Part shown: in pieces, positions 472 through 42,962 of the stretch
Layout of the letters: each line of letters starts with the position of its first letter
Position numbering within the stretch: position 1 is the first letter of the stretch
Source of the DNA: Candidatus Poribacteria bacterium
GTDB lineage: Bacteria; Poribacteria; WGA-4E; PCPOR2b
Direction of reading: 5' to 3'
DNA length: 64,000 nucleotides
Assembly: GCA_965218095.1 (NCBI GenBank)
Contig: OZ244587.1
Span: forward strand, 1,668,720 to 1,732,719
Notes under the pieces: generated by a model
The model's database searches: none
Seen by the model: the letters and a program-made list of their open reading frames with translations, nothing else
Told to the model about the DNA's origin: nothing
Translations under genes and position numbers: made by a program

Positions 472-613
472 TCATCTCAACTCCTTTATTCATAAGGGTT
501 TGATGCCTATATTGTATCAAATTTACACAAAACTTGCAAGCCTAAACCTTATAAGCGCGTTTTGTATTTTGGGGGCATATTAACGCCAGTCCGTGTCTGT
601 TCATTGGTTTACC

Positions 614-994
614 TCATTTCGGCGGATCGCAAATGCGACATGGTTCGTAGCGTTCCCTGGCATTTTCCAATTTCATCGGCTTTTGGTTTTCCCCGAGGAA
701 CTGGCATCCCTCTCTATGATACCTTTTCCCGGCGGGGTTCACATAAACGAGAATATCTTCGTTGACCATTTCGTTTTTCTCCCTTTGTTTCCTATTCACC
801 TTCCCCATAATCCTTAGAATCGCTTGGATGACTGATCCGGCGGCGATTGTCCCGAGGATAGTTGTTGCGATGAATCCCGTGAAAACCCAGTTGGCTATTA
901 TGTCCCAGACGCCTGTTCTCTCGTCAGTGGCTTTGTCGTGTTGCGTCCGCGGTTCTAATTCCTTTTGTGCTCTTTCTTCGCGTGTTTCTGCCAT
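614..994 (-). CDS. small membrane-anchored protein with a C-terminal Ada-like zinc-binding motif
   Basis: 126 aa with one TM helix (WVFTGFIATTILGTIAAGSV). The C-terminus YHREGCQFL...ARERYEPCRICDP matches the Ada_Zn_binding-type Cys4 pattern. Confidence 0.45.
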   Translation of the reverse strand: MAETREERAQKELEPRTQHDKATDERTGVWDIIANWVFTGFIATTILGTIAAGSVIQAILRIMGKVNRKQREKNEMVNEDILVYVNPAGKRYHREGCQFLGENQKPMKLENARERYEPCRICDPPK

Positions 995-1084
995 TGCATT
1001 CCTCTCCTTTCAACATTGCCCGCTTGGGTCTTAGAGAAATCAATATTACGAGTTTTTTACTTAAAGTCTGATTGCGCCGGTCGA

Positions 1085-1235
1085 GTAGGAGCACTGCGAC
1101 GTATCGAGACCAAGCAAACCACCGCTCACTTGGTTTCTTGGTTTCGATACACCTTCAGCTACTCAACCTACCGCTCAACCACCGACGCTTCGCTACTCAA
1201 CCGGCGCTCGCTAACTGAAAAAGTTGTATCAATAT
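1085..1235. repeat. about 150-bp non-coding repeat, copy A (partner at 63415-63525)
   Basis: Shared blocks tcgagtaggag..., ctcac(t/g)tggtttcgatac..., and cgctactcaaccg(g/a)cg(c/t)tcgctaactgaaaaa are present at both ends of the window. Confidence 0.5.
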
Positions 1236-1251
1236 CCACTTGTCATTAATG

Positions 1252-3282
1252 TCATTTCCACTCACGTGCGTCTAGCCCCTCACCTATGGTCGGCAGGCAT
1301 GACATCCGCAATCTAGCACAACCTAGTGGAATCATTCTAATCGTTTCTTCGGGCGCGTCCGACTTGATTGGACTTGGCCGAAGTTCCTCAACGGTCTCGT
1401 TCTCCAGATTCCAGTTGGGAATGCGCTTTGCCTTCACCTTGATCTCCACGGGCGCGCCCTCGACCGTCCACGGTTGAACTGCCAACCTATTTTTCTCCTC
1501 TACCGTCAGGGAGGAGGCTGGTTTATCGCAGTCTATCACCAGGCCGTAGTTCCATGGGCTTTTGGGTAGCACCGCCCACTCAGGCCAACCCGCCGTACCC
1601 CCGCACCGGCTCCATTCTTCCTCAATCCGAATCGAGTAGCTCAACGGCCCCCGGTCCACTGTCACACTACCGTTGCGCGGCCAATCTGTCAAAGCAAGCT
1701 CCATCGGCATCACGATGTCTACCCTATCGCCGTCAATCCACTCCCGCTCGATCCGAAGGTATGTTTGAGGCCCTGCTTCCACATCCAACCTTTTACCGTT
1801 TAGGGAAACACACAAACCCTTGCACCACTTCGGCACGCGCAGATAAAGCGGAAACTCTACTGACTGAGAAGTCGCGACCTCCATATGCACCGTATCTCTG
1901 AAGGGATAATGGGTCTCCGCATGAATCGTGACCTCTCTCCCCTCCCGGCCGACCTTTGCAGTTACCTCTGAAGCCGCATACATCCAGGCAGCCAAACCGC
2001 CATCGGCCGTTCCCTGCCACAGGTTCTCCACGTACCAGGGCCAACCCATCGCCACATTGTGCTGACAGCAACGGTAGAGATAAGGGGAATAGGAGATCAT
2101 GCATGCTTTATTGGCATACTCATGGTTGCCTGAAGCATCGAGTTGCGGCTGATTAGATGCTGTAAGGTAATGCAGCCCTTTGAGGTCGGGCGTCTGGGAA
2201 GCGGGGAAATGGTTTAGAGTGATGTCTTCACAGCGGTCTGCGTACTTTGGATGGCCCGTGATTCGTCCCAGGATGTAGAAACTCTTGTTGAACTCAATCA
2301 TGGCACAGGTCTCGCAACCCTGTCTTGGATCAGTATACGTGGAACGAAGGACCTCGTCTGCCCCGAAGATGCCCCTGGGCTGCTGACCCCAGGTGCCCAT
2401 ATGCTGATTGTACCAGTATTCTGAGGCAGCCAGATGCCATGATGCTTTCGATTGGGGGTAGTAACTGCCCGGATAGCGGAAGCGATGGGTGAAATCCACC
2501 ACATGGTGGGCCAACCATTCGTCCGTTCTGTAGCGTCTCATTGTGTCGTTATCACCAGCGTTTAACATCCCCTCACGTCCAGGCCATTGATCGGTTGTGT
2601 GCGGAAAGTGTTTGAAAAAGCGCGTCGCAAGCTCCAGCAGCCACAACTCCCCTGTTTGGTTGTAAAGCCAGTGGAGGTGAGGGATCATCTCGCAAGGACG
2701 GCGCTTGTCGACAATCGGCTCATCAGGGATGAACACCTCATCGGGTATATCACGGCAGTACTGGAAAAAGTGGGTCATAAATGGGATAACGCGGGCGTCC
2801 CCAGTATATTCGTAATGGTGGATGATCGGGTCGAGCATAACGGCGTGGGCCCAGAGGCCCGTAAACTTCTCACCGAATTCCCCTTCAACAGGTGCGAGGT
2901 TGCCGGGACCGAAATAACCGTTCCCCTCCTGGCTGGCAAAGGCAGCCTCGATCCATCTTTGGGATTCCTCCAATAAATTTTTATCTCCCCTCAGTACTAC
3001 GAGGTCGTGGAAGCCCCGCAACCAGTACGGCGCCTCCTCTGCCCCACTGACCTCCTCACCCCCTAGCCAACCGTTGTTGGGTTTAAGGAAGTCGCTCAAC
3101 TCGTCCAGGTGGCCCACCATCCCATCGGCCATCAGCTCAAGCTGAACTTTAAGCCACCCACCCGGGCGTATGCACCCAAGCGGGAGTTTGACAAGTGGAT
3201 TTGGAAGAAGGGGAGGTCGATTTGTCGTATAGAAGGAATTTGATTTACTTACATCGGGCTTCTCTACAACGGTTACCAGCAT
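1252..3282 (-). CDS. DUF1680/GH127-like glycoside hydrolase (beta-L-arabinofuranosidase family)
   Basis: 676 aa. The N-terminus NRPPLLPNPLVKLPLGCIRPGGWLK...QLELMADGMVGHLDE is typical of the DUF1680/GH127 family. A GGAGGGA RBS precedes the ATG. Confidence 0.55.
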   Translation of the reverse strand: MLVTVVEKPDVSKSNSFYTTNRPPLLPNPLVKLPLGCIRPGGWLKVQLELMADGMVGHLDELSDFLKPNNGWLGGEEVSGAEEAPYWLRGFHDLVVLRGDKNLLEESQRWIEAAFASQEGNGYFGPGNLAPVEGEFGEKFTGLWAHAVMLDPIIHHYEYTGDARVIPFMTHFFQYCRDIPDEVFIPDEPIVDKRRPCEMIPHLHWLYNQTGELWLLELATRFFKHFPHTTDQWPGREGMLNAGDNDTMRRYRTDEWLAHHVVDFTHRFRYPGSYYPQSKASWHLAASEYWYNQHMGTWGQQPRGIFGADEVLRSTYTDPRQGCETCAMIEFNKSFYILGRITGHPKYADRCEDITLNHFPASQTPDLKGLHYLTASNQPQLDASGNHEYANKACMISYSPYLYRCCQHNVAMGWPWYVENLWQGTADGGLAAWMYAASEVTAKVGREGREVTIHAETHYPFRDTVHMEVATSQSVEFPLYLRVPKWCKGLCVSLNGKRLDVEAGPQTYLRIEREWIDGDRVDIVMPMELALTDWPRNGSVTVDRGPLSYSIRIEEEWSRCGGTAGWPEWAVLPKSPWNYGLVIDCDKPASSLTVEEKNRLAVQPWTVEGAPVEIKVKAKRIPNWNLENETVEELRPSPIKSDAPEETIRMIPLGCARLRMSCLPTIGEGLDAREWK

Positions 3283-3329
3283 TTTGGTTCCCTCCTATTT
3301 GGATTGAACTGAATTAACAGATTTGCTGC

Positions 3330-3536
3330 CTAATCAGGAGTGGGAGATTGTTTTTGATATCGTGACATGGCCATCTTCAGACGGATACACAACTCGGTAT
3401 CTTCATCACTTTCTGCCATCAGCCGCTGTGCTTCCGCCCAAACCGCTTGTGGGAGAGATATGTGCAGCCGCCACTCCAGCTCAATAGATGCCTTTTTCAA
3501 AAACGCTACGGCTTCTCTTTTGTCATCTGCCAGCAT
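3330..3536 (-). CDS. small hypothetical protein
   Basis: 68-aa ORF with no recognisable motif. An overlapping 26-codon upstream ORF is in another frame. Confidence 0.2.
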   Translation of the reverse strand: MLADDKREAVAFLKKASIELEWRLHISLPQAVWAEAQRLMAESDEDTELCIRLKMAMSRYQKQSPTPD

Positions 3537-3869
3537 CAGTAAATTCTCTTTTATTCATGTGTGCTTCTGCCCTTGTGATCAGACGATTTGTTTCGTCTTT
3601 CATATTATCATCCCGCTACGACTTCTACGCTTTAGCAATCCGGCTTCCTGAGTGTAAATGTACATGAGTGCTATCTGCTTACTTCTTATGCCTCATTGCA
3701 ACCGTTGAGGGCTCATTGGCGAAAATCAACGGGTTAATTTGTGTGAGCAACTCGTCTCGTTCAATAAAACATCAGGATGTTGAGGAATAACACTTTGTGA
3801 ATCATGAGGATCTCTCCTTTTTGACAGCCACTCTTGACGCCCCCCTCTATGTCTCCCCCCAACTTTGGA

Positions 3870-4097
3870 CTTACTATTACCCATAAGTCTGCAAACCCTT
3901 GTTGTGGTATAGGGATTCTGCCCGCTGATGAATCAGCGAGCTACACAGCTGCGTCCGATGAAGAAACCGATAAACGAAGTTTATTAGTTTCTCCTGAATC
4001 GAGTTTAGAAGATCGCTCGAAAGCCCGATGAATCGGGCTTCTTTTTCTGTAACTCGGCGACTTCATCGCCGAGCGAAAAGATGTGGGTAATAGTAAG
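3870..4097 (+). repeat. MITE-like structured repeat, copy 1 (downstream of the 1210-aa gene)
   Basis: Terminal inverted repeats CTTACTATTACCCAT...ATGTGGGTAATAGTAAG. Three internal stem-loops with GATGAATC-type loops. About 95% identical to copy 2 at 7987-8206. Confidence 0.6.
4021..4047 (+). terminator. intrinsic-terminator-like hairpin plus T-tract inside MITE copy 1
   Basis: aaGCCCGATgaATCGGGCtt followed by cttttt. Confidence 0.45.
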
Positions 4098-4273
4098 CCT
4101 TATCAGGGGGAGAGGCAGAGATGCCTCGCTACAGAAACCCGGGCCGATCATACCACAGCATCATTTATCCAAATGAATCGCCCCGCGCTAGATGAATCAA
4201 GCGCCTCAAGTGAGGCGTTAGGACATCAGGGCATTCTATTGGCACTGCACGTAGCGAATATTTGAAAATTATA

Positions 4274-7200
4274 TTACTTCAAAATGACCATCCGCCTCAT
4301 CTGACGGAAAGATGGCGTAGACAATTGGTAGAAATAGAGTCCACTTGAGACCCGCTCTCCCGTTTCAGAGCGTCCATCCCAATACGCGGCTCGGCTCCGA
4401 TTCGTGTAATAGCCAGCTATCTGATGACCTAAATCCAACCGACGCACCAACGCGCCCTTTGTGTCATAAATCGTGATCTGCACATCGGCATCGTTGGCGA
4501 GATGATACGGCATCCATGTCTCCGGGTTGAATGGATTCGGGTAGTTTGGCAACAGGGCTATCTCTGTTGGTGTCAGGGATGCCAAGAGCTGTTCAAGCAC
4601 CACAATCCCCCTCACCATCGTGGCATCCTTAACCTCAAGCGACCTCGCGTCGGTCAGCCACTGTTGAACGTCTGCCGCCGTGAGCATCTCAAATGCTTGT
4701 GGATGCGCTGAAGGCGCGGATGCCGCATTCCCAAACGCGCCCGCAACCAACACCAGATCTAGGATATTCACGCCACCGTCACTATTCACATCCCCCGCAA
4801 TCGGTGGCGGCTCAGTGTCGGAGACGACCTTAAAGGTCACCGTTTGCTCAAATCCAGCGGCAGACACAGAGACGGTGTTCGTTCCCGGGTTCGGACCCAG
4901 CGTGAGCGTACTCTCTGCTCTGCCGTTTTCATCGGTCATTGTGCGTGTGGCATTGAGCGTTCCACCGCCCGTGGTCACGGTAAACGTGACCGGAACCCCC
5001 TCAAGCACTGAACCATTCTCATCCTGTACTTCAACGACAAACGGGTTCGCCGGGGCCGCACCGGACACGCCTTTCTGGTTATCGCCTGAGATTTTCAAAA
5101 GGGCGGGATGCGCTTGGTCGTCAAAGCCTACCATAACCCTTCTGCTTTGGAGGGTTGGAATGTGGGTGTGGATGGATGTGTAGCTCAGGAGGTTTCCCGT
5201 CACATCAACCGTGTCTCCACCCCCCAATCCCGTGTTTGCCACCAGGGGCGAGATGTCCGATATCGAGTTGTCCGAAAGCTCCAGCCATGTCAGATTGGTT
5301 AATCCCGACACAGGCGAGATGTCCGATATCGAGTTCCCGCCAAGCCCCAGCCATGTCAGATTGGTTAATCCCGACACAGGCAAGATGTCCGATATCGAGT
5401 TCCCGCCAAGCCCCAGCCATGTCAGATTGGTTAATCCCGACACAGGCGAGATGTCCGATATCGAGTTCCTGTCAAGAAACAGCCGTGTCAGATTGGTTAA
5501 TCCCGACACAGGCGAGATGTCCGATATCGGGTTGCCCCAAAGATACAGCTCTGTCAGATTGGTTAATCCCGACACAGGCGAGATATCCGATACTGAGTTG
5601 TTGTGAAGATTTAGATCTGTCAAATTGGTTAATCCTGCCACTGCTGAGATGTTCGAGATGTTGTTGTCCCCAAGAAACAGTCCTGTCAAGCTGGTTAAGC
5701 CGGACATCGTCGAGATGTCCGAGATGTTACTGCCCCCAAGAGACAGCGACCTTAGTTTGGTTAAACCCGTTAAAGGCGAGAAATCCGATACCGAGTTACT
5801 GTTAATCGAACGATTCTCTGCCTCCACATACTCCGCACTAAGATCCAGTGTTCTCAGGTTGGTTGCACCTTCAAGCCCGGTCAAATCGCTTATGTTGGCG
5901 TTTCTTGCGTCAAGGCGGGTCAAATTTTCTAGGTGCCCTCGGAAAATGGGAGTACTTGGTGGCAGCCCGATCGCTTCTGCAATCGCAGCGCGGAGGTTGG
6001 GGTCGGGGATGTCAATCTCAGCCACTGCCTCAAGACGAACCCCCATTAACCCAGACATATCCCACAGTTCGACCGTGCCAGCCACCGTCCCGGAGGCAAG
6101 GGTTGTATCATCGCTTGAAAATGCCACAGAAAGTACATGATCCCCATGCCCGAGAGTGACGAAATTTACTCGCGTCGTTATGTCCCACAGCTTGACCGTC
6201 CTGTCCCACGACCCGGTAGCGAGGGTACTCCCATCGCGCGAAAATGCCACAGAAGTGACCCCACCCGTATGCTCTTCAAAAGTGCCGATATTTTGCTGTG
6301 TCTCAACATCCCACAGCTTGACCGTCCTATCCCACGACCCGGTAGCGAGGAGGGTCGCATCAACAGGCGAAAATGCCACAGAAGTGACCCTACTCGTGTA
6401 ATCCTCAAAAGTGCCGATATCTCGGTGCGTCGCCACGTCCCACAGCTTGACCGTCCCATCCCGCGACCCGGTAGCGAGAATTGCCCCATCGGGCGAAAAC
6501 GACACAGAAGTGACCTCATCCGTATGTCTAAAAGTGGCGATATCTCGTTCTGTCTCTACGTCCCACAGCTTAACCGTCCCATCCCATGAGCCGGCAGCGA
6601 GGGTCCTCTTATCGGACGAAAACGTCATAGCAGATGTATATGTATGCACCTTAAGGGTCGCGATATCTTGTTGCGATACTACGTCCCACAGTTTGACTGT
6701 CCCATCCCATGAGCCGGTTGCGAGAGTCACGCCATCGGACAAAAATGCCACAGAATGGACTCCAGATGTATGCTCATCAAAGGTGGCGATATGGTGTGGC
6801 GAAATTTCCACAAGCCAAAAGGAGGCATAGCCTGCATTCCCATCCGTATCAACAACCTTGACATGAACGGTATGTACCATAGAATCAGACAGATTCGTAA
6901 AGCCCTCCGCTGTAAAAGCACCGTTATAGTCGAATTTAATGGGGGCATCTTTTTCTCCCGCTAATCCACGACACGCTATCAGTCCATCAGAACCAGACAG
7001 GAGCACTTGATGGAGCCCCTCTGAATCGCTGACTTTGAGTTGAACCGGGACGCTCTGCGAGCCTGCCGGATAAGTACGCGGCGAGGTAAGTTCAATGGTG
7101 GGTCGCTCCCCCTCTTCAGTTGGGGTATTGAGATTGAAGTAGGGATGCACGGACAAATATTCGGCATGGCACGCGGATAACTGATCCCGTCCTGGACCAC

Positions 7201-7906
7201 CATACGACATGATGTACGCACCATCGTGAAAATCGTGATTCAGTCCGAAGGCGTGTCCCAGTTCATGTGCTGCTGTTCCGAAGCTAAATTCGCCAGGAAC
7301 TAACGCATCTCCACCATTTTTCCCCCATCTGCCTCCGACACCTCCGACGTTACGTCCATCACCAAGACCAATTAGATCTGTGCTATTATCAATGACGATT
7401 AGGTAAACGTTTGCCTCAAGATTAAACGCTAGGTTTATCTCGTCGAATACAGCACCAGCGGTGTTATCAAGGTAGTGGCTATCGGGGTGTCGCCCGTCCA
7501 CGTGATGCACCATCGGCTCGCCTTGGGGGTCGGTTTCGATGCGGAAGGGGACTGCCCCGTAACCGTGTGCACCCATCTGCTCGGCAAAGAAGGTCTGGAC
7601 CTTGAGAATCTCCTCCTTCATCCGCTGAACGACGTCGGCGCGATACGGGCGGTCATTGGGTAAGAGGTAGATTATCCGTACCGTGCGTGGTTCACCGACG
7701 TTCAAATTCGCTGTAAAGGATTGGGCGTAGCGACGATTGGGATATTGGTCCGAATACCGTTTGCTCCATTGATTATCAATAACGCCGCAAAAAAGTGTCC
7801 CGTTTCCGGCAGATAGCTGGGAGGCGGCAATCGCTAGGTTGAGTGTGCCGCCGGTGAGATAGATTATTAGAGAGTATAAGGTGAAACGAAAAAATTGTGT
7901 TTTCAT
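4274..7906 (-). CDS. secreted mosaic metalloprotease: signal peptide, metzincin (reprolysin-like) domain, 7 WD40 blades, about 9 LRRs, Big_2-like Ig domain, dockerin-like module, T9SS C-terminal sorting domain
   Basis: 1210 aa. HELGHAFGLNHDF with Met-turn YIMSY near nt 7255. Seven ATGSWDGTVKLWDV repeats at about 6040-6830. LTNLTxLxLxxNSISDISPVSG repeats at about 5200-5900. An invasin-like beta domain at about 4830-5100. DVNSDGGVNILDLVLVAGAFG at about 4720-4800. C-terminus LLPNYPNPFNPETWMPYHL...YFYQLSTPSFRQMRRMVILK. Confidence 0.85.
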   Translation of the reverse strand: MKTQFFRFTLYSLIIYLTGGTLNLAIAASQLSAGNGTLFCGVIDNQWSKRYSDQYPNRRYAQSFTANLNVGEPRTVRIIYLLPNDRPYRADVVQRMKEEILKVQTFFAEQMGAHGYGAVPFRIETDPQGEPMVHHVDGRHPDSHYLDNTAGAVFDEINLAFNLEANVYLIVIDNSTDLIGLGDGRNVGGVGGRWGKNGGDALVPGEFSFGTAAHELGHAFGLNHDFHDGAYIMSYGGPGRDQLSACHAEYLSVHPYFNLNTPTEEGERPTIELTSPRTYPAGSQSVPVQLKVSDSEGLHQVLLSGSDGLIACRGLAGEKDAPIKFDYNGAFTAEGFTNLSDSMVHTVHVKVVDTDGNAGYASFWLVEISPHHIATFDEHTSGVHSVAFLSDGVTLATGSWDGTVKLWDVVSQQDIATLKVHTYTSAMTFSSDKRTLAAGSWDGTVKLWDVETERDIATFRHTDEVTSVSFSPDGAILATGSRDGTVKLWDVATHRDIGTFEDYTSRVTSVAFSPVDATLLATGSWDRTVKLWDVETQQNIGTFEEHTGGVTSVAFSRDGSTLATGSWDRTVKLWDITTRVNFVTLGHGDHVLSVAFSSDDTTLASGTVAGTVELWDMSGLMGVRLEAVAEIDIPDPNLRAAIAEAIGLPPSTPIFRGHLENLTRLDARNANISDLTGLEGATNLRTLDLSAEYVEAENRSINSNSVSDFSPLTGLTKLRSLSLGGSNISDISTMSGLTSLTGLFLGDNNISNISAVAGLTNLTDLNLHNNSVSDISPVSGLTNLTELYLWGNPISDISPVSGLTNLTRLFLDRNSISDISPVSGLTNLTWLGLGGNSISDILPVSGLTNLTWLGLGGNSISDISPVSGLTNLTWLELSDNSISDISPLVANTGLGGGDTVDVTGNLLSYTSIHTHIPTLQSRRVMVGFDDQAHPALLKISGDNQKGVSGAAPANPFVVEVQDENGSVLEGVPVTFTVTTGGGTLNATRTMTDENGRAESTLTLGPNPGTNTVSVSAAGFEQTVTFKVVSDTEPPPIAGDVNSDGGVNILDLVLVAGAFGNAASAPSAHPQAFEMLTAADVQQWLTDARSLEVKDATMVRGIVVLEQLLASLTPTEIALLPNYPNPFNPETWMPYHLANDADVQITIYDTKGALVRRLDLGHQIAGYYTNRSRAAYWDGRSETGERVSSGLYFYQLSTPSFRQMRRMVILK

Positions 7907-7986
7907 CGCTATGTTTATTTCCTTTGAGGTTGGAAATGTGTGAGAGGCATTTGTGCCTCGATTGTCAGGACACCCCCCTTATCAGG

Positions 7987-8206
7987 CTTACTATTACCCA
8001 TAAGTCTGCAAACCCTTGTGGTATAGGGATTCTGCCCGCCGATGAATCAGCGGGCTACACGGCTGCGTCCGATGAAGAAACCGATAAACGAAGTTTATTA
8101 GTTTCTCCTGAATTGAACTGAGAAGATCGCTCGAAAGCCCGATGAATCGGGCTTCTTTTTCTGTAACTCGGCGACTTCATCGCCGAGCGAAAAGATGTGG
8201 GTAATA
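7987..8206 (+). repeat. MITE-like structured repeat, copy 2 (upstream of the 1210-aa gene)
   Basis: Same orientation and architecture as copy 1. Hairpin plus T-tract at 8145-8170. A 3-nt deletion and several compensating stem substitutions relative to copy 1. Confidence 0.6.
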
Positions 8207-8254
8207 GATAGCAACTTTGAGGGGACATATAGAGGGAGACTTTTCAAAGTTAAA

Positions 8255-9709: not shown

Positions 9710-10603
9710 TTATCGTCGTCGATCCATTGCTACGATTGTCTCTTCGCCCAGGTGCTCGATGAGCCACATCTTCAGCGGCACGTCGTCGTCTGTCGGCACA
9801 TACCGTCCGTCGTTCCTGACCGCGGCGCCGAGCAACTGCCTGCGAATCGGATTGCAACGGTCATACAGGTGTTCCACGACCATGTTGTCCTTAGGCCGAA
9901 TCCAGCGGTAGCCATAGCCGTAGAACAATACTTTGCGGGTGAATGCAGAACGATTTGGGCTGCGGGAGTGCCAGAGCCGACGGTCAAAAAACACCGCCGT
10001 CCCCGGCCTCGCACACATGGGGATTGCTGCATCAGGCACACTATCGGTAGTTCCCTCGCGGGGGTTGCGGCCCACCTCTGAGAAAGTGGGTATATCATCC
10101 GAAAGGTGACTGCCGGGGATAATGTAAAAGTTGCCCCGTCCGGGCTCTGAGACGTCGGTGAGAAAGTAGCCAACTTTAAGCGACAAACGGGGACGCGGAT
10201 GCGATTCCATCATCTCAATGTTGGCTCGCCCACTATCCTGGTGCCACTCCAACCAACCTTCCTCCTGTGGTGCATTGGGCTCAGCAGGGGGCTTAATGTG
10301 CATGTGTGCGTGATACAGGTAAATGTTCCACCCTAAAATACCCCAAATTTTTGGTAAGGTGGTGGGATAGTCAAGTAGGTCTAAAAAAGCGTCGTCCTCA
10401 CCGAGAAAGTTTGAAGAGCTCCACGCCTTGCCATGTTCAGTCGGCTCCGCTTCAATCGCCTTTTTGTGAAGACTATCCACGGCGGCGGTCAAACGGTCAA
10501 TCATTTCTTCGGACAAGGCATTTTCAACGATGAGGTAGCCTTGTTCCTCGAAATGGCGGTGTTGTTCGTCCGTTAAGCAATGTGAAAGATAATCTTGAGT
10601 CAT
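9710..10603 (-). CDS. phytanoyl-CoA dioxygenase (PhyH) family Fe(II)/2-oxoglutarate oxygenase
   Basis: 297 aa. WHQDSG...PGSH...WHSRSPN facial-triad pattern. The N-terminus GYLIVENAL is typical of the family. Confidence 0.7.
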   Translation of the reverse strand: MTQDYLSHCLTDEQHRHFEEQGYLIVENALSEEMIDRLTAAVDSLHKKAIEAEPTEHGKAWSSSNFLGEDDAFLDLLDYPTTLPKIWGILGWNIYLYHAHMHIKPPAEPNAPQEEGWLEWHQDSGRANIEMMESHPRPRLSLKVGYFLTDVSEPGRGNFYIIPGSHLSDDIPTFSEVGRNPREGTTDSVPDAAIPMCARPGTAVFFDRRLWHSRSPNRSAFTRKVLFYGYGYRWIRPKDNMVVEHLYDRCNPIRRQLLGAAVRNDGRYVPTDDDVPLKMWLIEHLGEETIVAMDRRR

Positions 10604-12363: not shown

Positions 12364-12549
12364 TTTTCATGTCCTACTGAATCTACATATACATGCTGAC
12401 ATTCATTCATAAAGAGCGCATTGGGTGATGCAGGAGCTCAAAGGTTCAGGGGTTCTGAACTCTGTTGTGCATCCAAAATTCCACATCCAAATCGGCACAA
12501 ATGAAACTGTGATAGACAATACGTGCATTACAAAGGAGACTCGCATATA

Positions 12550-13329
12550 ATGAACGAGGACGAAAAATATGTGTTCGACCTGACAGGCTATCTTATTATC
12601 AAAGATGCACTCACACCTGAAGAGGTCGCACGCTGTAACGCGGCAATTGACCAACTCAAAGAGATGGACAGGTCATTGTCAGGCGGATCGAAGGCGTTAG
12701 CGGGCACATCCCACCGGAGGGATATGGGCGGGATGTTAGCGTGGGAACGTCCGTGGTGTGAGTCGTTTCGAGAGTTGTTAGTGCACCCACGAATTAAACC
12801 CTACCTCGACGGCATCTTGGAAGAGGGCTATCGGCTAGATCATGGCCCAGGCTTGATTGCGATGGAGGACGGAACAGAAGGCGGCACATTGCACGGTGGC
12901 GGCGTCGAGCGTCCCAATTTCTCCGAAGCCTACTTCTTCAAGAACGGACGCATCTACACCGGACTCACGGTGGTAGAGTACATGCTGGCGGACGAAGGTC
13001 CCGGCGATGGCGGGCTAGTGGTCATTCCGGGGAGCCACAAGGCAAACCTGCCCTGCCCACGCAGCATGAGGTGGTATGAGAAGCATCAGGAGCATGTGGT
13101 TGAAGTCCATGCAAAAGCAGGGGACGCAGTCATTTTCACCGAGACCTTGACGCACGGAACGCTGCCGTGGAAGGGTAAGCATCAGCGTCGTGTGCTGCTT
13201 TATAAGTTCAGTCCGGGATTTCAGGCTTACAGCGGGGGCGCGCATCAGATTGCGTATCCTGATTATATTGAGGAGATGACGCCGGAGCAGCGTGCGGTGA
13301 TGGAGGCGCCACATATTCGTCGTCGATAG
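12550..13329 (+). CDS. phytanoyl-CoA dioxygenase (PhyH) family protein
   Basis: MNEDEKYVFDLTGYLIIKDALTPEEV N-terminus and VIPGSH motif. An AAGGAG RBS precedes the ATG at 12550. Confidence 0.7.
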   Translation: MNEDEKYVFDLTGYLIIKDALTPEEVARCNAAIDQLKEMDRSLSGGSKALAGTSHRRDMGGMLAWERPWCESFRELLVHPRIKPYLDGILEEGYRLDHGPGLIAMEDGTEGGTLHGGGVERPNFSEAYFFKNGRIYTGLTVVEYMLADEGPGDGGLVVIPGSHKANLPCPRSMRWYEKHQEHVVEVHAKAGDAVIFTETLTHGTLPWKGKHQRRVLLYKFSPGFQAYSGGAHQIAYPDYIEEMTPEQRAVMEAPHIRRR

Positions 13330-14533: not shown

Positions 14534-14709
14534 TCGATTACCTGACACACCCTGAGTTTGTCAGGTACAACCCGGGGTTGCCACTGTCAGCACAAGGACG
14601 TCATTTGTGTAGATGTTAAAGAAATTGTGTGTTAAACTTACTCCTATTTATGGTGATTTGTTTAATTCTGTTAAAGCGAAGGAACACTCATGATTACAAG
14701 GGGAAATCG

Positions 14710-16660
14710 ATGAATTTCCGACAGAAAATCACACTACATCTTTTGCTCTATATCGCTCTGTGCAGCGCTGCATTCGCGCAAGTCGTCGACATCCCCGCCC
14801 CCAACCTCCAAGTTGCAATCCGTCAAGAACTCCAACTACTCCCCGGCAGTAGGATTACAAAAGAAGACATGCTGTGGCTAGAAAGGCTAAACGCAGCCCG
14901 CCACGATATAATTGACCTTATGGGCTTAGAACACGCAACTAATCTGGCAAGTTTGTCCTTATGGGGAAATCAACTCGCCGAACTAACACCGATAGCCAAC
15001 CTCCGAAGATTGACATACCTTGATACGGCTGCCTGCTCCATTTCAGATATAAGCGTGGTATCAAACCTCGTTAGTTTAACCACTCTAAACGTTAGGTTTA
15101 ACCAGATTGTCGATATTAGCCCGCTCGCCAACCTGACAGACCTAGTTTCGCTGTGTTACGCCACTAGCAAATCTCACACAACTCACCGAATTGTACCTGA
15201 GCGATAATCGCATTGCAGATATTAGCCCGCCTGCAAGTTTAACAAAATTGGATTCGCTAGACATTCGACGTAACCCCGTTACTGACTACACCCCGCTTGA
15301 TGGACTCGCTTTAACCCATTTTTTATACGACGAATTTTGCGAACACCTGCCGCTTCCCGTACGCGACAGGATTCATAATAGAAACTACCCGTCCATATTC
15401 GCGAGATGGAGTGGATTAGGTTGGGTTCCTATTAGCAATCGTCCCGAACTATCAGATATGGAAAATGTAGCACGTCATGATTTATGGTTCAGCGTCAACA
15501 TGTTTGGATTAACCTTCTTCGAAACGCCTGACGGATTTAAGATGTCGGGCGAGATTGACAAGGCGATACGCCGGCGAGATGAATTTCTTGCCCTCAATCC
15601 CAATATGGTTTTTCTTGTTACGATTGCTATGAGAACGTACTCACTCAATGCTTTTCCGGAAGACTGGCCATATTGGATAAGGGACGCACAGGGGAACATC
15701 CAGCGCGAAGGATTAGTTGATTTTACGCACCCGGACATCCAGGATAGAATTGTTCAACAGGCTATAACGGTATCAAGGTGTGGCTTATATGACGGTATTA
15801 TCTTCGATTGGTGGAACGAGCATGGTGCCGTTCTTGCCGATTTTGATGGGAATTGGGAAGATAAATATCGCGGAAATGAAGCCGAACAACGCGCTCGAGA
15901 CAACATCGTACGCGGCATCCGGGCTGCAACTCGACCCGACTTTTTGATAATGGGCAACACCAATCGAACCAAAATCCCACGTACAGGGCCTTACATCAAC
16001 GGCGGCTTTATGGAAACCGTCGTACCTCATGATAGAATTGGCGCAGTCCTCGAACAACACCTGAACGAGGTTGAAGACTCGCTGCTTTGGCTAGATCAAA
16101 ATCTACGAGAACCACAAATAAACGGACTGGAAGGTTTGAGTGTTCTCACTGAGCCACCAGATAGCTAAACCAATCTTCGGTGGATGCGAGCTATCACAAC
16201 CTTGAGCCTCACGTATTCCGATGGCTATGTTCTTTTCACCGAAAGCATAAAATACACCCACTATTGGTACGACTTTTGGGACGCCGACCTCGGTCGCCCT
16301 GTCGGTCCAAAAGCCCAATTGTACGACAACTGCCCCGGTCTCTATATTCGCGAATTCACGAACGGGTGGGCGGTGTACAACCACAGCGGCAAGCCGCAGA
16401 TAATAACCTTGCCAGAAAAAGTGCAAGCTGTAGCAAGCGGTTTGGTGAACACCGAGCACGCCCTCCCTAACCTCGACGGCGAGATGTACTTTCGCATTAA
16501 GCCGAAGAATCGCGCGGATGTCAATGGCGATGGAGTGGTGAATATCCTAGACTTGACGCTGGTTGCCCAAGGCTTCGGCACAGATAAATCTGGTGTGGAC
16601 GTGAATGGGGATGGGGTCGTCAATGTGTTTGACCTTGTGTTCATAGCGAACCAATTTTGA
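14710..16660 (+). pseudogene. secreted LRR / TIM-barrel-like / dockerin protein disrupted by one frameshift (about 15143-15160) and one in-frame TAA (16166-16168)
   Basis: Signal peptide MNFRQKITLHLLLYIALCSAAFAQ with an AAGGGGA RBS. LRR units continue across the frame change (PLANLTDL / PLANLTQLTELYLSDNRIADISP). The ORF at 16184 is in frame with the previous one across a TAA. The C-terminal double dockerin is DVNGDGVVNILDL...DVNGDGVVNVFDL. Confidence 0.7.
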
Positions 16661-30302: not shown

Positions 30303-31239
30303 TAACCCAAGTTGCGACCTATTCATCGAATATGTGAGTGAACTGAATATGTGAGTGAACTCAGAGCTGATTGATACTGCTAGCCAATACAAACAAGACC
30401 ACTTTCAATTCAAATCCGTGTTGCGTTACTGCATGGATTGAACGTGGAAGCAGTTTGTTAATCAAACTGCCAGCCGTCTCAACAGACTTACGATGGTAAT
30501 TAGCCAAGTAGGTCTCCCATGGTGGATACAGCCGCTTGGAATTCTTCTTGCGTACTGGCTTTAACGACTGATGTAACAATATCTTCTATCTCATAATTAT
30601 TGTATGCTTTGTCACCATAGCCCGGTGGCAAGTCGAAGTCAAACCACTGTAACCCTTCAACGTCCCCTGTACTGGCTGGGGTCACAAAAAATTCAACAGG
30701 GTGTCGACTCGCAGTCACTAGCAGATGAACTTTCAAGCCATAGAAATACCGACGTTTGGACGCTTGATAGCCTCGATATGCCTTATCGGTATAGATTTTT
30801 GACCGACGAATGCGGAACAAACAGCAATTGGTATGGTATCCAGTGCATAGATTTTCTGTTGATTAAGTTGCACATAGCTTCGTCCCAAGATTTTGAACAA
30901 TGTGGTGAACATCGGTTTAATTCGATGAAGTCGTCGGTTTAATCGACTTTTTGAAAGCATCTTGGGTATATAGCCATGAGTCTTTAGAAAGTCACAAGTG
31001 GTTTGCAAGTTTGCCCCGAAGAACAACGCAGCGACGATGCCGGTGGTCATCACTTCGGCATCAGACATCTGCGTTTGTGGGTGTGGTTTTGAGTTGAGTG
31101 CTTCTAAGAGCTTGTCACAGAGATAGAAAATGGTTACAATTTGGATGTCCATGGGTTTCTCCTTTGAGGTATTATGGTTTGGATTACCTCTACTTTAACG
31201 GAAAACCCATGGATTTTCAATTACTAGCAACTTGGGTTA
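30303..31239 (-). mobile_element. IS982-family insertion sequence, copy 1 (degenerate)
   Basis: 13-bp perfect terminal inverted repeat TAACCCAAGTTGC...GCAACTTGGGTTA. The transposase is split into three ORFs (30733-31152, 30500-30820 and 30361-30579), with motifs FYGLKVHLLV...TPASTGD...HGFELKVVLFVLASSINQL typical of IS982 transposases. Confidence 0.75.
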
Positions 31240-36285: not shown

Positions 36286-36736
36286 GTGAAGATCTCCTTC
36301 GCTCAACGCAGACAGCCACTTCGGGATTTGCGCTTCGCTTACAACCGGGGAGATTGTTTCGGAGGAGTTCGATTTCACAGTAACACCCAACGCCCTTGCA
36401 AACGCAGTTCTGCCAGTAAGGCTTGATGGGGTTGGCACGCCGAAGCAGACCCTTCTGTTGCAGAACTATCTCAACCCGTTCAACCCTGAAACGTGGATTC
36501 CGTATCACCTTTCGGAAGCTGCTCCTGTAACCCTATCAATTTACGACACGACCGGACAACGGATACGGACGCTTTCGCTTGGATTCCAGTTAGCAGGCTT
36601 CTATCAAAGCCGTCCACGCGCTGCCTATTGGGATGGGTGCAACGACTTGGGTGAACGGGTTTCAAGCGGGGTCTATTTTTACCAATTGTCCACCCCATCT
36701 TTCTATCGGATGAAGCGGATGGTTATTGTGAAGTAG
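36286..36736 (+). pseudogene. orphan T9SS C-terminal sorting domain with linker, lacking a start codon and a protein body
   Basis: ...FDFTVTPNALANAVLPVRLDGVGTPKQTLLLQNYLNPFNPETWIPYHL...YFYQLSTPSFYRMKRMVIVK. The open frame begins right after a TGA at about 36283. Confidence 0.65.
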
Positions 36737-38921: not shown

Positions 38922-41900
38922 TTGAATAAGCGGATTACCTCAATACCTATTGTGCTAGCACTCTATACAATCCTAATATGTATTCCATCTTCGGTATATG
39001 CCAAAAAGGGGGTAAGACAGCAGATTCAACTGAAAGCAGGCGCGGCGTTGCAGCGGATCAAATCCGATTCAGAAACCCCTGTCCGTGCACGATGGCATCA
39101 GAACCGGGGGACAGTCCGCAACCTTTACAATTTGACACTGCCTGCCCCGATAGGAACGCTGGAAACATCAGTGCGTCAATGCCTTACCGACTATTGTGAC
39201 CTTTTTGCGATGACTGATCCAAACATCGAGTTGCGTCTCACGGATATCCAAAACAGCTTAACGGGCAGACATGTTCGATTCCATCAATACTACAACGGTA
39301 TCGAAGTTTACGGTGCAGTGACCTCGGTCCACACCAACCGCTCTGGGCAGATACGAGTCATCCACAACAACTACTTCCCACAGATCAACATCAGTACAGC
39401 GGCATCGCTCTCCCCGGAACAAGCAATCAGTATCGCCATTGCCGAGTCCGGTGCATTCGATTTGCGCAAGCCGCCGCGTGTCAACTTGGTAATTTTCCCG
39501 GATCGTAATACGGGACAGATAGGCGACTATGCTAATGCGTATCGCCTCGCTCACCGCACAATCGTGCACTCCCGTCAACCACTCGCAAGTTGGGAGTATA
39601 TCATTGACACCAACACCGGCGAGCTGTTGCACCGACGGAACCTGCTCAGGTTTGCTGACGGACAAGGGCGCGTCTTTAACCCGAATCCTGTTGTCGCCCT
39701 TAAAGATTTCACGCTCATGGACCAAGATGATTCTCCTGACGCGATACCAGAAGCAGCGTATACGGATGTGATGCTACCTGAGTTGGACGGGAGTGGTTTT
39801 CTTGATGGGCCTTACGCGAGTACGAGATTGACCGAAAATCGTGCCAACGAGCCGACGCTGGGGTTCAACTATCTCCGAGATGATCCCCGATTTGAGGAGG
39901 TGATGGTCTATTATCACGTTGATGCCGTTGGGCGTTATTTGAAAGGACTCGGCTTCGATTTCGTGGACAATTGGCAGATTCCTGCGAATGTGCATTTCGG
40001 TATGACGAGGGCTGGTTTCTATAACGATAGTGAGGGATCGATTAATTTCGGAGATGCCGGTGTTGATGTTGCCGAAGATGCTGAAGTGATTATCCATGAA
40101 TATGGTCACGCGATCCTTGATCGACAGGTCCCTAACATTAACAAGGGCGAAGGTGGCGCGATACACGAAGGGTTTAGTGATTTTCTCGCAGCCAGTTTTT
40201 TCAGTGCCGTGAGCGATGGTTTTAGTGACTCGATCGTTTTTGAATGGGCTGGTTCAGGTGACCCTGAGATTTACACTCGTCCCGTAACTGGTAACAAGCG
40301 TTATCCCGAAGACATTGTGGGTGAGCCACACACCGATGGAGAGATTTGGTCTGCGGCACTATGGGAGATTTTTGAGGCGATTGGACGCGATGCGTCGATC
40401 CGCTTGATTGTCGAGAGCCATTTCTTCCTCTCACCCGACACGGAACTTGTCGATGGGGCATCAGCGATTTTTATGGCGGATCAGGAACTGAATGGTGGAG
40501 TAAATTTCGACCTAATTTTGGGAATTATGGAGAACCGTGGATTCTTTACGCTGCCCAAATTGGCATCGGATGCCTTTGAGGAGAACGATACAGCGGAGAC
40601 CGCAGCCGCGATTGAGCTCCCGTTTGTCAACGGAGAACTGTCCGTCCACACAGCGGACAATGATGATTACTATAGATTCCGTTTGGATGAGACAATGCAG
40701 GTTGGGTTGGGAATTGATTTTCAACCCATTTACGGGGAGTTGATGCTAACATTGATGGGACCTAATGGTATCGAGCTTGTTACCTTCGAGACGAAGGATG
40801 TTACATCGCTTGAATTAGTGCCGGGCGATTATGTCGTTGCAGTTTCGGGCATCAACGGTGCGACTAACGATTATAAACTAGCGCTTATCGTTGACAACCA
40901 CGGCGATACGCCTGACACAGCGACATCTGTGGCGATCGGCGACACGATAGAAAGTTTCATCGACTTCAACGGAGATACGGATTTCTTCGCGATTGAAGGT
41001 GAGAAGGGGCAGCGCATTGAAATCACTATTACGACAAAGAACTCCGACCTCGACTCTCTGCTCGTTGTCTATGGACCAGATGGTGAGCTCTTTGCTAAAA
41101 GTGATGATGTCTTGCCGACCATCGGTCCGGAGCCGATTCCCGAACTAAATCCGCGTGGGATTGATTCCCGCGTGAGTGAAAAACTACCAGCCAATGGAAC
41201 GTACCTGCTCGCTGTCAGCAACATTGCACTTCCCAATCTGAATGCCCCCTTTGGCGGTCTAAACTACTCTTACACACTGACGATCAGTGGGAAGACCGAT
41301 GACCATGCAGCGTGCGGTAGTGGCGAGGAAACGCCATTGACCTTCGATGCACCTATAACAGGTATCATTACCCTTAGCACCCTTAGCGGTGATCCTACAT
41401 CACCGGATCCTCAAGACTCGGAACCCGATCTTCATGACTCGGACGGTTTCCGCTTTGAAGCGTCAGAGGGCACTGTCATTGCCCTACACGTTGAGGTAGA
41501 AACGCCTGCACGCGAGGTAATATTTATGGTGACCCTCCTCAGTCTTTTGGATGCATCTGGAGAAACGTTGGTATCTACTCGTGGCGCTCCTAATGGCTTA
41601 GAGGTGCGGATTGATGGATTTCTCATCCCTGCCGATGGCGAGTATTGTGTTGATGTTGCCGGTTTCATAGGAGGTGCGGTTGGTTCCACTTATACCTATA
41701 CGCTGACGTTATCTGAGGGCGAACTGCCCGAAGATGATCACGAAGATCTGAAAGGGAATCCAACCCCCTTAACGGTGGGTGTTCCTGTCGAGGGAGCGAT
41801 CAGTTTTGTCGGGGATGCCGATGCGTTTCAGTTTACTGCTACAGCGGGACAAATCATTACGTTAGCGGTGGACGGGCAACCCGCCACTCCGTTCTCTCGT

Positions 41901-42962
41901 TTAGTTTTGACCCTGTATAATAGCGATTTACAGCGTTTAGCCGAGGTTCCGCTCTTTATAGAAGGTATTGATTCGATGCTAGAAGGATTTGAAATTCCTG
42001 TGGACGGAATTCACTATGCCGAGATTAGAGATATGTTCGGAGGAAGTGAAGCGAATTTTTCCTACACACTGACCCTGACAATCGAAGAGGGAGATGTTGA
42101 GCGTAAATTTCCCCCTTATGATGTCAACCAAGATGGCAAGGTGGACATTTTTGATCTCGTGCTTGTCGGTCAACATTTCGGCGAAAAATTCATTAACGCC
42201 ACGCCAACTGCAGATTTTGGACAGTTCCGTTCGGTATCGCCCGAAGGGGAGTTGCGGCTCCTGATGACCCCGAGTGTGACGGATACACGACAATTGACCG
42301 TCTCAATCCACACCACAGCGATTGCCGATCTTTACGGCTACCATTTTTCAATCCAGTACGATCCGGCGATATTAGAGTTCCTTACTGCATCACCAAGCCC
42401 GGTTTTAGCCGCTGCGCTGCCCCAAAGTTACTGGCATATCTCCCAGCAAGGGACACAACTGAAGTTCACACAGACACGTCAAGCAACGCTGAAAGGTGTG
42501 ACAGCAGAGGGTTCACTGGCTATGCTTGTTTTTCATGTCAAAAAGACGGTGCCCCCGTCGTCGCAGCCCCCCATCCGGCTCGTTGACCTGCAACTGGCGG
42601 ATTCGCTGACAAGAGCGATTCCGGTGCACGTGGTCGGTGAGCGAGTGTCAATGACAGAGCTATTCCCTGAGAAACCGATGTTGCTGCAAAACCACCCGAA
42701 CCCGTTTAACCCGGAAACATGGATTCCGTATCAACTCTCTACCGATTCAGAGGTGGTTATCTCAATTTACGATACAAACGGTGAGCGTGTCCGTCAATTT
42801 GACCTCGGCTATCAGCACGTTGGGACATACATTACTCGCGGTAGGGCGGCCTACTGGGATGGAGAAGACATGTATGGTGAGCAGGTTGCGAGCGGCTTAT
42901 ATTTTTATCAGATCCGGGCGGGTGCGTTTTCTGCGACCCGCAAAATGGTTATCGTCAAATAG
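38922..42962 (+). CDS. secreted mosaic metalloprotease: FTP/PepSY-like propeptide, M36/M4-type gluzincin domain, 4 PPC (pre-peptidase C-terminal) domains, dockerin-like module, T9SS C-terminal sorting domain
   Basis: 1346 aa. TTG start with a GGAGA RBS. HEYGHAILD plus EGFSDF at about 40097-40200. Four DxDxY/FxF PPC units (ADNDDYYRF, GDTDFFAI, HDSDGFRF, GDADAFQF). YDVNQDGKVDIFDLVLVGQHFG at about 42115. C-terminus LLQNHPNPFNPETWIPYQL...YFYQIRAGAFSATRKMVIVK. Confidence 0.85.
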   Translation: MNKRITSIPIVLALYTILICIPSSVYAKKGVRQQIQLKAGAALQRIKSDSETPVRARWHQNRGTVRNLYNLTLPAPIGTLETSVRQCLTDYCDLFAMTDPNIELRLTDIQNSLTGRHVRFHQYYNGIEVYGAVTSVHTNRSGQIRVIHNNYFPQINISTAASLSPEQAISIAIAESGAFDLRKPPRVNLVIFPDRNTGQIGDYANAYRLAHRTIVHSRQPLASWEYIIDTNTGELLHRRNLLRFADGQGRVFNPNPVVALKDFTLMDQDDSPDAIPEAAYTDVMLPELDGSGFLDGPYASTRLTENRANEPTLGFNYLRDDPRFEEVMVYYHVDAVGRYLKGLGFDFVDNWQIPANVHFGMTRAGFYNDSEGSINFGDAGVDVAEDAEVIIHEYGHAILDRQVPNINKGEGGAIHEGFSDFLAASFFSAVSDGFSDSIVFEWAGSGDPEIYTRPVTGNKRYPEDIVGEPHTDGEIWSAALWEIFEAIGRDASIRLIVESHFFLSPDTELVDGASAIFMADQELNGGVNFDLILGIMENRGFFTLPKLASDAFEENDTAETAAAIELPFVNGELSVHTADNDDYYRFRLDETMQVGLGIDFQPIYGELMLTLMGPNGIELVTFETKDVTSLELVPGDYVVAVSGINGATNDYKLALIVDNHGDTPDTATSVAIGDTIESFIDFNGDTDFFAIEGEKGQRIEITITTKNSDLDSLLVVYGPDGELFAKSDDVLPTIGPEPIPELNPRGIDSRVSEKLPANGTYLLAVSNIALPNLNAPFGGLNYSYTLTISGKTDDHAACGSGEETPLTFDAPITGIITLSTLSGDPTSPDPQDSEPDLHDSDGFRFEASEGTVIALHVEVETPAREVIFMVTLLSLLDASGETLVSTRGAPNGLEVRIDGFLIPADGEYCVDVAGFIGGAVGSTYTYTLTLSEGELPEDDHEDLKGNPTPLTVGVPVEGAISFVGDADAFQFTATAGQIITLAVDGQPATPFSRLVLTLYNSDLQRLAEVPLFIEGIDSMLEGFEIPVDGIHYAEIRDMFGGSEANFSYTLTLTIEEGDVERKFPPYDVNQDGKVDIFDLVLVGQHFGEKFINATPTADFGQFRSVSPEGELRLLMTPSVTDTRQLTVSIHTTAIADLYGYHFSIQYDPAILEFLTASPSPVLAAALPQSYWHISQQGTQLKFTQTRQATLKGVTAEGSLAMLVFHVKKTVPPSSQPPIRLVDLQLADSLTRAIPVHVVGERVSMTELFPEKPMLLQNHPNPFNPETWIPYQLSTDSEVVISIYDTNGERVRQFDLGYQHVGTYITRGRAAYWDGEDMYGEQVASGLYFYQIRAGAFSATRKMVIVK

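Follow-up and report, generated by a model that had tools for sequence, protein, structure and literature searches.

Sponge symbionts are rich in "eukaryote-like" repeat proteins, whose binding targets and evolution are largely unknown. A protease gene of Candidatus Poribacteria bacterium raises the question of whether near-identical tandem repeats in such a protein form a binding surface that is being remodelled, and by what route. The gene lies in a 64,000-nucleotide stretch of contig OZ244587.1 (assembly GCA_965218095.1, forward-strand positions 1,668,720 to 1,732,719; hereafter the window, in whose own coordinates all positions are given). An initial annotation, made from the sequence alone, described near-identical leucine-rich repeat (LRR) units and WD40 blades in a large protease gene. 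The reading favoured here, to which we give a probability of roughly 0.7, is that the LRR and WD40 repeats serve a secreted metalloprotease of several domains as its target-binding module, and that this module varies in unit number and in surface. In one family of eukaryote-like repeat proteins, an OgpA-like (mucinase-type) protease head is joined to repeat modules, and the ligand-facing codons of the LRR module change far faster than synonymous sites.

4274-7906, minus strand: whole gene, a single open reading frame (ORF) of 1210 residues (ORF list and translation; Pfam and NCBIfam scans)

The protein consists, in order, of a signal peptide, a metzincin head, a beta-sandwich, six WD40 blades, the LRR array, a Big_1 domain, a dockerin-like segment, and a type IX secretion system (T9SS)-type C-terminal domain (CTD). 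Pfam and NCBIfam scans match WD40 (201.8 bits), LRR_4 (130.9 bits) and LRR_8, with local matches to internalin models.

Hypervariable codons in a homogeneous LRR array

5237-5764, minus strand: eight canonical 22-residue (66-nt) internalin-like LRR units (unit table; local NCBIfam internalin_A match; Foldseek match to InlA 1o6v)
5237-5302, 5303-5368, 5369-5434, 5435-5500, 5501-5566, 5567-5632, 5633-5698, 5699-5764, minus strand: boundaries of the eight units in coding register
5303-5566, minus strand: highly homogeneous core of four units, residues 781-868 (pS, the proportion of synonymous differences, of 0; Fisher test; block absent from the second allele described below)

The units share the consensus LTNLTxLxLxxNSISDISPVSG. 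At least five consecutive 66-bp units had been proposed, and Tandem Repeats Finder recovers 5.3 copies of a 66-bp period at 5247-5599 (90% matches, score 536), as well as a longer stretch of the same period at 5247-5797 (8.3 copies, 79% matches). Two units said to be one nucleotide apart, 5303-5368 and 5369-5434, are separated by exactly one base, TCG or TTG (Ser/Leu). Across the core, units differ at 1-10 of 66 nucleotides (85-98% identity); the flanking units at 5237-5302 and 5567-5764 show 11-29 differences. The description of an invariant scaffold with variation confined to exposed codons is nearly exact within 5303-5566; the flanking units are increasingly diverged.

Polymorphism within the core is concentrated in codons 6, 8, 10 and 11: of their 12 nucleotides, 10 are variable, compared with 2 variable positions among the 54 of the scaffold (Fisher p = 1.9e-8). 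The 18 scaffold codons carry no synonymous difference (0 per ~15.6 sites) in any pair of the four core units. The four variable codons reach a pN, the proportion of nonsynonymous differences, of 0.60-0.74 between distinct core units, and their contents include GAG/CGG/TGG, TAT/TTT/GGG, TGG/GAC/GGC and GGC/AGG/GGG. In the window array and in that of locus L040 (Latescibacterota, described below), the dN/dS-type comparison of variable and scaffold codons gives a variable-codon pN of 0.46-0.62 against a scaffold pS of 0.08-0.09. These pN and pS values are simple Nei-Gojobori counts over 4-8 units per array, and in the comparison of several arrays the pairs were pre-selected at >=75% identity.

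The absence of synonymous divergence among the core units can only reflect very recent duplication or homogenisation, in line with the recent expansion or gene conversion first proposed. Ongoing gene conversion and recent duplication followed by selection are indistinguishable with the data on the core.

The variable codons fall on the predicted binding face. An AlphaFold2 model of residues 355-905 (pLDDT 88.9) renders the LRR region as a regular solenoid with pLDDT >90, and Foldseek matches its fold to InlA (1o6v, 2omu, 8h62) and InlF (4fmz) at E ~1e-21 and 31-38% identity (36% for 1o6v). In the model, the LRR beta-strands occupy unit positions 6-8, so that codons 6 and 8 lie on the strand, flanking the buried Leu7, and codons 10-11 come just after it. 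The strand and the residues that follow it are the ligand-contact region of LRR proteins. Exposed positions thus vary here as had been claimed, and the same positions carry the highest within-array amino-acid entropy in 21 LRR arrays of the wider protease family: 2.0-2.4 bits at positions 6, 8, 10 and 11, compared with <=0.5 bits at the seven core scaffold positions 1, 4, 7, 9, 12, 16 and 18.

A counterpart is the array at locus L040 (OZ242311.1, Latescibacterota), where an ORF starting at 2025 encodes an 11-unit LRR array (residues 407-648) with an essentially identical scaffold. Neighbouring units there are 100% identical, and the same variable blocks come back in a changed order (EILYLW three times, EVMSLS/R four times). 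This arrangement suggests block duplications or exchange, and the array is an independent case of the same phenomenon in another phylum. The arrays at L032 and L003 reach identities of up to 89-92%. Variable-codon pN exceeds scaffold pS 5-8-fold in the window array and L040, and 1.2-1.8-fold in L003, L032 and L015.

These counts bear on the view that the array is a neutral recent duplication whose four variable codons are merely unconstrained, with no diversifying selection. In the motif LxxLxLxxN, positions 6, 8, 10 and 11 are x residues, the classic sites without constraint, and the entropy pattern of the 21 arrays, taken alone, fits relaxed constraint. Unconstrained sites cannot outpace synonymous sites, however, yet nearly all variable-codon nucleotides of the core are polymorphic beside a synonymously unchanged scaffold. 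Several of the variable-codon changes are multi-nucleotide, and the roughly 5-8-fold excess of variable-codon pN over scaffold pS is found in two independent arrays. Neutral duplication is accordingly judged improbable, and diversifying selection on the variable positions is the preferred account.

A second allele lacking four units

A homologue search returned one identical protein (P0001), on a 6.35-Mb contig, and one 99% identical protein (P0002) of 1122 residues, which is 88 residues, or four units, shorter than the window protein. P0002 is encoded on a 25.9-kb contig (ENA ERZ25067264; hereafter L001). Global alignment of L001 to window positions 560-8221 (~7.6 kb) contains three substitutions (4428, 3947 and 3435) and a single gap of 264 nt. 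Within the protease gene itself, L001 differs by one single-nucleotide polymorphism and by this in-register, four-unit gap. Outside the unit-number difference the strains are ~99.96% identical; synteny between the window and L001 stops at window position ~560. The gap removes residues 781-868, and the alignment places it equivalently at 5329-5592. Repeat-number variation, which had been predicted for this locus, is the probable meaning of an allele that lacks exactly four units and has its junction inside shared scaffold; the comparison comprises two alleles, one contig per state, all from assemblies.

The junction in L001 is a hybrid unit. Its codons 1-15 match window unit 759, and from codon 16 onward it carries GAC like the core units, against GAT in unit 759. 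The variable blocks lie ~48 nt apart, and the spacer between them is near-identical (<=1 mismatch). Unequal recombination in register, or slippage, between scaffold stretches would be expected to leave a hybrid junction of this kind; an assembler could also produce it.

The alternative, already touched on in the initial annotation, is an assembly artefact in which the window array is over-expanded or the L001 array collapsed, leaving no biological length variation. The junction sits in sequence common to all units, exactly the place for a mis-join by an assembler; assembling highly conserved repeats from short reads is known to be unreliable (PMC12222747); and a single contig stands behind each unit-number state. 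Against these points, the array spans just ~0.5 kb and the window protein is found on a 6.35-Mb contig. The L001 contig name, ctg778336_13x_l, resembles the output of a long-read metagenome assembler, a resemblance judged from the name only. The four core units can be told apart by their variable codons and so are no simple copies, and comparable arrays with differing unit numbers occur throughout the family in chromosome-level metagenome-assembled genomes (MAGs). Because the array is short, the window contig is megabase-scale, the units are individually distinguishable, and the L001 name suggests a long-read assembler, the 264-nt gap is more likely a real repeat-number change than an assembly collapse, and we regard the artefact as quite unlikely. 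Repeat counts in genes of this type are trustworthy only with read-spanning evidence.

Two wider searches returned no further alleles. A scan of JGI metagenomes found only distant relatives (<=68% identity, mostly CTD-only matches), and a homologue search with the LRR region only returned just LRR-only proteins of up to ~600 residues at <=67% identity.

Together, the fast ligand-facing codons and the unit-number difference between near-identical strains point to strong, ongoing selection on target recognition, as judged from sequence comparison. The system offers a testable handle: four positions in each unit, and a protease whose class of substrate is predicted.

Origin of the variable blocks

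The variable blocks could have come from elsewhere instead of arising in place through point mutation and selection. Segmental gene conversion might import them as cassettes from paralogous LRR arrays of the same genome, a combinatorial route in the manner of antigenic-variation loci or of variable lymphocyte receptor (VLR) assembly. Dozens of paralogues per genome carry the same scaffold, the variable blocks of L040 recur in shuffled order, and import would explain multi-nucleotide differences beside an untouched scaffold more easily than serial point mutation. In the other direction, a search with the 18-nt variable blocks found no exact copy at any other place in the window or among 147 loci from related genomes, a weak test that covers only 64 kb of the source genome, and at the protein level just two of the five variable blocks are present in any of 118 homologues. 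Cassette exchange as the main source is unlikely, if with a real chance of being right.

Targeted hypermutation of the LRR codons by a diversity-generating retroelement (DGR), or something similar, would also restrict variation to a few codons of otherwise identical sequence. Within the window, self-BLAST reveals no second copy of the array that resembles a template repeat, the variable codons lack an adenine-specific pattern, and no reverse-transcriptase domain was found in the ten neighbouring ORFs scanned or in any gene called on L001. Known DGRs, to our knowledge, act on C-type-lectin or Ig folds and not on LRRs. The lack of a reverse transcriptase in the scanned ORFs, of a template repeat in the window, and of an adenine bias speak against the locus as a DGR target, and this explanation is extremely improbable.

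The favoured account of a recombining, selected binding module can be stated as a sequence of steps. Long identical scaffold stretches (~48 nt) would permit in-register unequal homologous recombination or replication slippage, through which whole LRR units could be gained and lost. Since 66 nt is 22 codons, each event would stay in frame, so that the length and composition of the binding surface would change and the gene would not be switched off. Diversifying selection on concave-face residues, possibly aided by exchange with paralogous arrays, would then keep or create differences at the four ligand-contact positions as the scaffold stays homogeneous. Within the sponge matrix, the LRR and WD40 modules may dock the secreted or surface-bound protease onto particular surface proteins or glycoproteins of the host or of microbes, and fast turnover of the LRR surface could retune specificity among strains and paralogues.

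Phase variation in the sense of on/off switching is excluded, every unit being 22 codons long and changes being in frame.

An OgpA-like protease head

7121-7705, minus strand: OgpA/AMUC_1438-like metzincin catalytic domain, residues ~68-262 (phmmer, AlphaFold2, Foldseek, conservation)
7232-7267, minus strand: zinc motif HELGHAFGLNHD, residues 214-225 (HExxHxxGxxH pattern)
7208-7210, minus strand: Met-turn, Met233 (invariant in the family alignment)
6803-7105, minus strand: beta-sandwich behind the catalytic domain, residues ~268-368, as in OgpA/AMUC_1438 (AlphaFold2 secondary structure, Foldseek)

The label of a large protease gene is borne out by the 1210-residue ORF at 4274-7906 on the minus strand, which contains an intact HELGHAFGLNHD motif and a Met-turn. 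Metzincin models of Pfam match the head only around the motif and near threshold. The best PDB sequence matches in phmmer are AMUC_1438 (8dek, 8df2) and OgpA (6z2d, 6z2o), at E values of 2e-7 to 3e-7. An AlphaFold2 model of residues 1-370 (pLDDT 82.7) matches OgpA and AMUC_1438 in Foldseek at E values of 5e-16 to 6e-14 and TM scores of 0.51-0.56; the top match is OgpA 6z2p (E 5e-16, TM 0.54-0.56 over ~360 columns). These alignments cover 360-373 columns, essentially the whole two-domain length of both the model and the targets, and the next metzincins in the Foldseek results appear only at E 1e-4.

Both OgpA and AMUC_1438 have been characterised by experiment as O-glycopeptidases; their metzincin family is unclassified, and PF12044 covers only ~30 residues of it (PMC7518263, PMC9513282). 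The window protease resembles these Akkermansia muciniphila enzymes (OgpA is AMUC_1119) in having HExxHxxGxxH and a Met-turn followed by a beta-sandwich and, as reported for AMUC_1438 (PMC9513282), in that just ~30 residues around the head motif fall in PF12044. It differs from them in that identity to its head is only 17-18%, and in that WD40 and LRR modules are absent from the Akkermansia enzymes, AMUC_1438 having a CBM51-like module in their place. The residues H214, E215, H218, G221, H224 and M233 do not vary across 41 aligned family members, so the head probably retains catalysis.

The head belongs to a large family. At E <= 1e-10 the search yields 7527 proteins, although for many of them the match is probably confined to the widespread WD40 or LRR modules. 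Of the best 120 of these 7527, nearly all have HExGH at residue ~200-215 and an NPFNP-containing CTD, several paralogues are co-located on one contig, and simple motif counts give 0-14 WD40 blades and 0-22 LRR units in proteins of 1122-2113 residues. Family-wide, the same head and CTD carry 0-22 LRRs and 0-17 WD40 blades. Most of the loci are from MAGs labelled Candidatus Poribacteria, and the others from MAGs labelled Latescibacterota or Gemmatimonadota; their isolate names suggest sponge metagenomes.

The WD40 propeller

6059-6814, minus strand: six WD40 blades, residues 365-616 (Pfam WD40, 201.8 bits in six stretches; Tandem Repeats Finder; AlphaFold2)
6683-6814, 6560-6682, 6437-6559, 6308-6436, 6182-6307, 6059-6181, minus strand: the individual blades (blade table)

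The initial annotation held the WD40 blades to be as conserved at the nucleotide level as the LRR units. The blades are present, but their homogeneity falls clearly short of that of the LRR core: between pairs of blades, nucleotide identity is 60-83%, reaching 79-83% only among the three central blades, and pS is 0.22-0.54. Tandem Repeats Finder reports a period of 123/129 bp at 6182-6755 with 75-79% matches. The model of residues 355-905 contains 24 WD40 strands, that is, six blades, and Foldseek matches them to the prokaryotic WD40 domain 5yzv. Blades of some paralogues are 92-100% identical (L062, L055, L002, L003; 96-100% in L062 and L055), and the window gene falls in the middle of the range.

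Elsewhere in the window, a short WD40-like stretch at 47699-47920, outside the listed ORFs of >=150 residues, is 37-42% identical to the protease blades and may be a gene fragment.

Remaining domains and export

5765-6034, minus strand: LRR N-terminal cap and first irregular LRR units, residues 625-714, including the 34-residue unit AEYVEAENRSINSNSVSD (translation, comparison with P0003, AlphaFold2 helices and strands)
4832-5071, minus strand: Big_1 (invasin/intimin-type) Ig-like domain, residues 946-1025 (Pfam PF02369, 44.9 bits against a cut-off of 34.9)
4667-4798, minus strand: dockerin-like segment, residues 1037-1080 (PF00404, 19.4 bits, below the Pfam cut-off of 22.9)
4283-4543, minus strand: T9SS-type C-terminal sorting domain, residues 1122-1208 (TIGR04183, FlgD_ig and Por_Secre_tail scores)

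The LRR cap and irregular units at 5765-6034 are common to the window protein and P0003, a paralogue or orthologue. PF00404 is a precomputed annotation on several homologues of the protease. For the CTD, TIGR04183 scores 27.3 bits (cut-off 23) and FlgD_ig 41 bits (cut-off 27), both above threshold, and Por_Secre_tail (PF18962) falls just under its cut-off of 27 at 25 bits.

Several cargo proteins with the protease-type CTD cluster in the window. Two more C-terminal sorting domains, at 36437-36733 and 42651-42959 on the plus strand, are 55-65% identical to the protease CTD, and an 87-nt stretch at 36649-36735 is 83% identical to 4275-4361.

Several points weigh against a secreted, actively diversifying target-binding protease. 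Kamke et al. (PMC3909097) did not find T9SS machinery in poribacterial single-amplified genomes, so the export route of the protease is uncertain. Only six blades are recognisable in the propeller, which may or may not close with a cryptic seventh. Dependence of the protease on O-glycans and the existence of ligands for the LRR and WD40 modules are predictions. The case for selection draws on 4-8 units per array, simple Nei-Gojobori counts and pre-selected pairs, and recombination among paralogues could mimic positive selection at the variable codons. One of the two assemblies could be wrong on unit number. As to whether L001 lost the units or the window strain gained them, codon 16 of the junction unit, with its GAT/GAC difference, slightly favours deletion.

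Relation to known repeat proteins

The closest parallel in mode of change comes from fungi. High-internal-conservation (HIC) repeats of fungal NOD-like receptors (NLRs), such as the WD40 repeats of Podospora het-d, het-e and HNWD and the ANK and TPR repeats of other receptors, are likewise tandem repeats of near-identical nucleotide sequence in which a few codons of the binding surface are hypervariable. HIC repeats show allelic differences in repeat number, unequal recombination or concerted evolution is invoked for them, and their assembly is difficult and needs long reads (PMC4986451, PMC12222747). By the criterion used for them, inter-repeat identity exceeds ~85% (PMC4986451); the core LRR units lie at 85-98%, and the WD40 blades of the window gene, at 60-83%, fall below it. 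Hypervariable binding-surface positions that change faster than synonymous sites are found here as well, from the pN/pS counts and the predicted strands at positions 6-8. LRR motifs were not found in fungal NLRs (PMC4986451). Unlike the fungal proteins, which are intracellular NLRs with NACHT or NB-ARC domains and WD40, ANK or TPR repeats, the repeats considered here are LRRs in a predicted secreted bacterial protease.

A reading of the protein as an NLR of the STAND class (signal transduction ATPases with numerous domains) was rejected: Pfam and NCBIfam scans detect no NACHT or NB-ARC NTPase domain in it.

In unit and fold, the array resembles the Listeria internalins InlA, InlB and InlH, which share the 22-residue unit and the consensus LxxLxxLxLxxNxIxDIxxL. 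InlA binds E-cadherin through its concave face. The protein nonetheless stands apart from the internalin family proper, scoring 184 bits against an internalin_A cut-off of 1600 and lower still with other NCBIfam models (internalin_H, internalin_J and internalin_K), so the resemblance, as read from these scores, is at the domain level only. Unlike internalins, which are anchored through LPXTG or GW modules, it has a T9SS-type CTD, and its LRRs are fused to a protease and a WD40 propeller. We know of no internalin whose units are near-identical at the DNA level.

Within the phylum, the domain types are familiar. Kamke et al. (2014; PMC3909097) noted that WD40 and LRR (PF12799) genes are abundant in Poribacteria and that many of them encode the Por C-terminal sorting domain TIGR04183. 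The protease fits this set of poribacterial eukaryote-like repeat proteins (WD40, LRR, TPR, ANK), being of the same phylum and built of the same domain types. In the passages drawn on here, that work lists domains only; the OgpA-like head, the nucleotide homogeneity, the hypervariable codons and the allelic unit-number differences go beyond it.

A T9SS organism offers another comparison. Tandem LRR genes of Flavobacterium psychrophilum also encode surface LRR proteins, vary in copy and repeat number between close isolates, and require long reads (PMC8400371). What varies there, unlike here, is mainly how many LRR genes make up a 21-kb array; the proteins carry neither a protease nor a WD40 fusion, and the passages drawn on here give no analysis of hypervariable codons (PMC8400371). 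An OgpA-like head on such a family, nucleotide homogeneity with four hypervariable codons, and an allelic unit-number difference seem to be undescribed in the literature searched.

A broader and more speculative idea, to which we attach a low probability, is that sponge symbionts of three phyla share a horizontally spread and massively expanded family of secreted O-glycoprotease-like enzymes whose LRR modules, and in paralogues also WD40 modules, act as bacterial recognition arrays of the NLR or VLR type, with near-identical cassettes gained, lost and possibly exchanged between paralogues through recombination and four concave-face codons driven to diversify. If true, this would imply strain-specific repertoires for targeting host glycoproteins, and an arms race or a recognition code between sponge and symbiont.

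Neighbourhood of the locus

7987-8207, minus strand: ~224-bp element like a miniature inverted-repeat transposable element (MITE), copy upstream of the protease gene (self-BLAST, alignment)
3870-4093, minus strand: MITE-like ~224-bp element, downstream copy (self-BLAST, alignment)

The two MITE-like copies bracket the protease gene in the same orientation, are 95.5% identical, and end in terminal inverted repeats of 10-14 nt, CTATTACCCA...TGGGTAATAG. Several internal hairpin-like inverted repeats can be discerned by eye. Both copies are also present in L001, and no further copies occur in the window or in the 147 related loci. An Rfam scan of the whole window returned no family at gathering score; the 224-bp element is thus not a known RNA. 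Insertion sequence transposase copies of the DDE_Tnp_1 type lie at 30345-31239 and 61792-62660 and are 83-85% identical to L001 11991-12908.

A neighbouring GH127 gene in the window and BNR/sialidase-like genes on L001 would suit a setting in which glycoconjugates are processed. PhyH (phytanoyl-CoA dioxygenase) genes near the locus lie at 9710-10603 (minus strand) and 12523-13329 (plus strand). Kamke et al. (2014; PMC3909097) noted an expansion of the PhyH family in Poribacteria. The best homologues and this PhyH-rich context likewise assign the genome behind the window to Poribacteria.

An LRR gene unrelated to the protease, at 14629-16168 on the plus strand, appears to be split by a frameshift within its LRR region, near 15150, into the overlapping ORFs 14629-15207 and 15191-16168, both of which match LRR_4; it is either a pseudogene or a sequence error. 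A second peptidase gene, a 1346-residue ORF at 38922-42962 on the plus strand, encodes an M36 fungalysin-like peptidase along with an FTP propeptide, a PPC domain, a weak match to cohesin and the FlgD_ig/T9SS-type CTD that the LRR protease also has. Because the LRR protease has a dockerin-like segment, cohesin-dockerin pairing of the M36 protease with it is conceivable.

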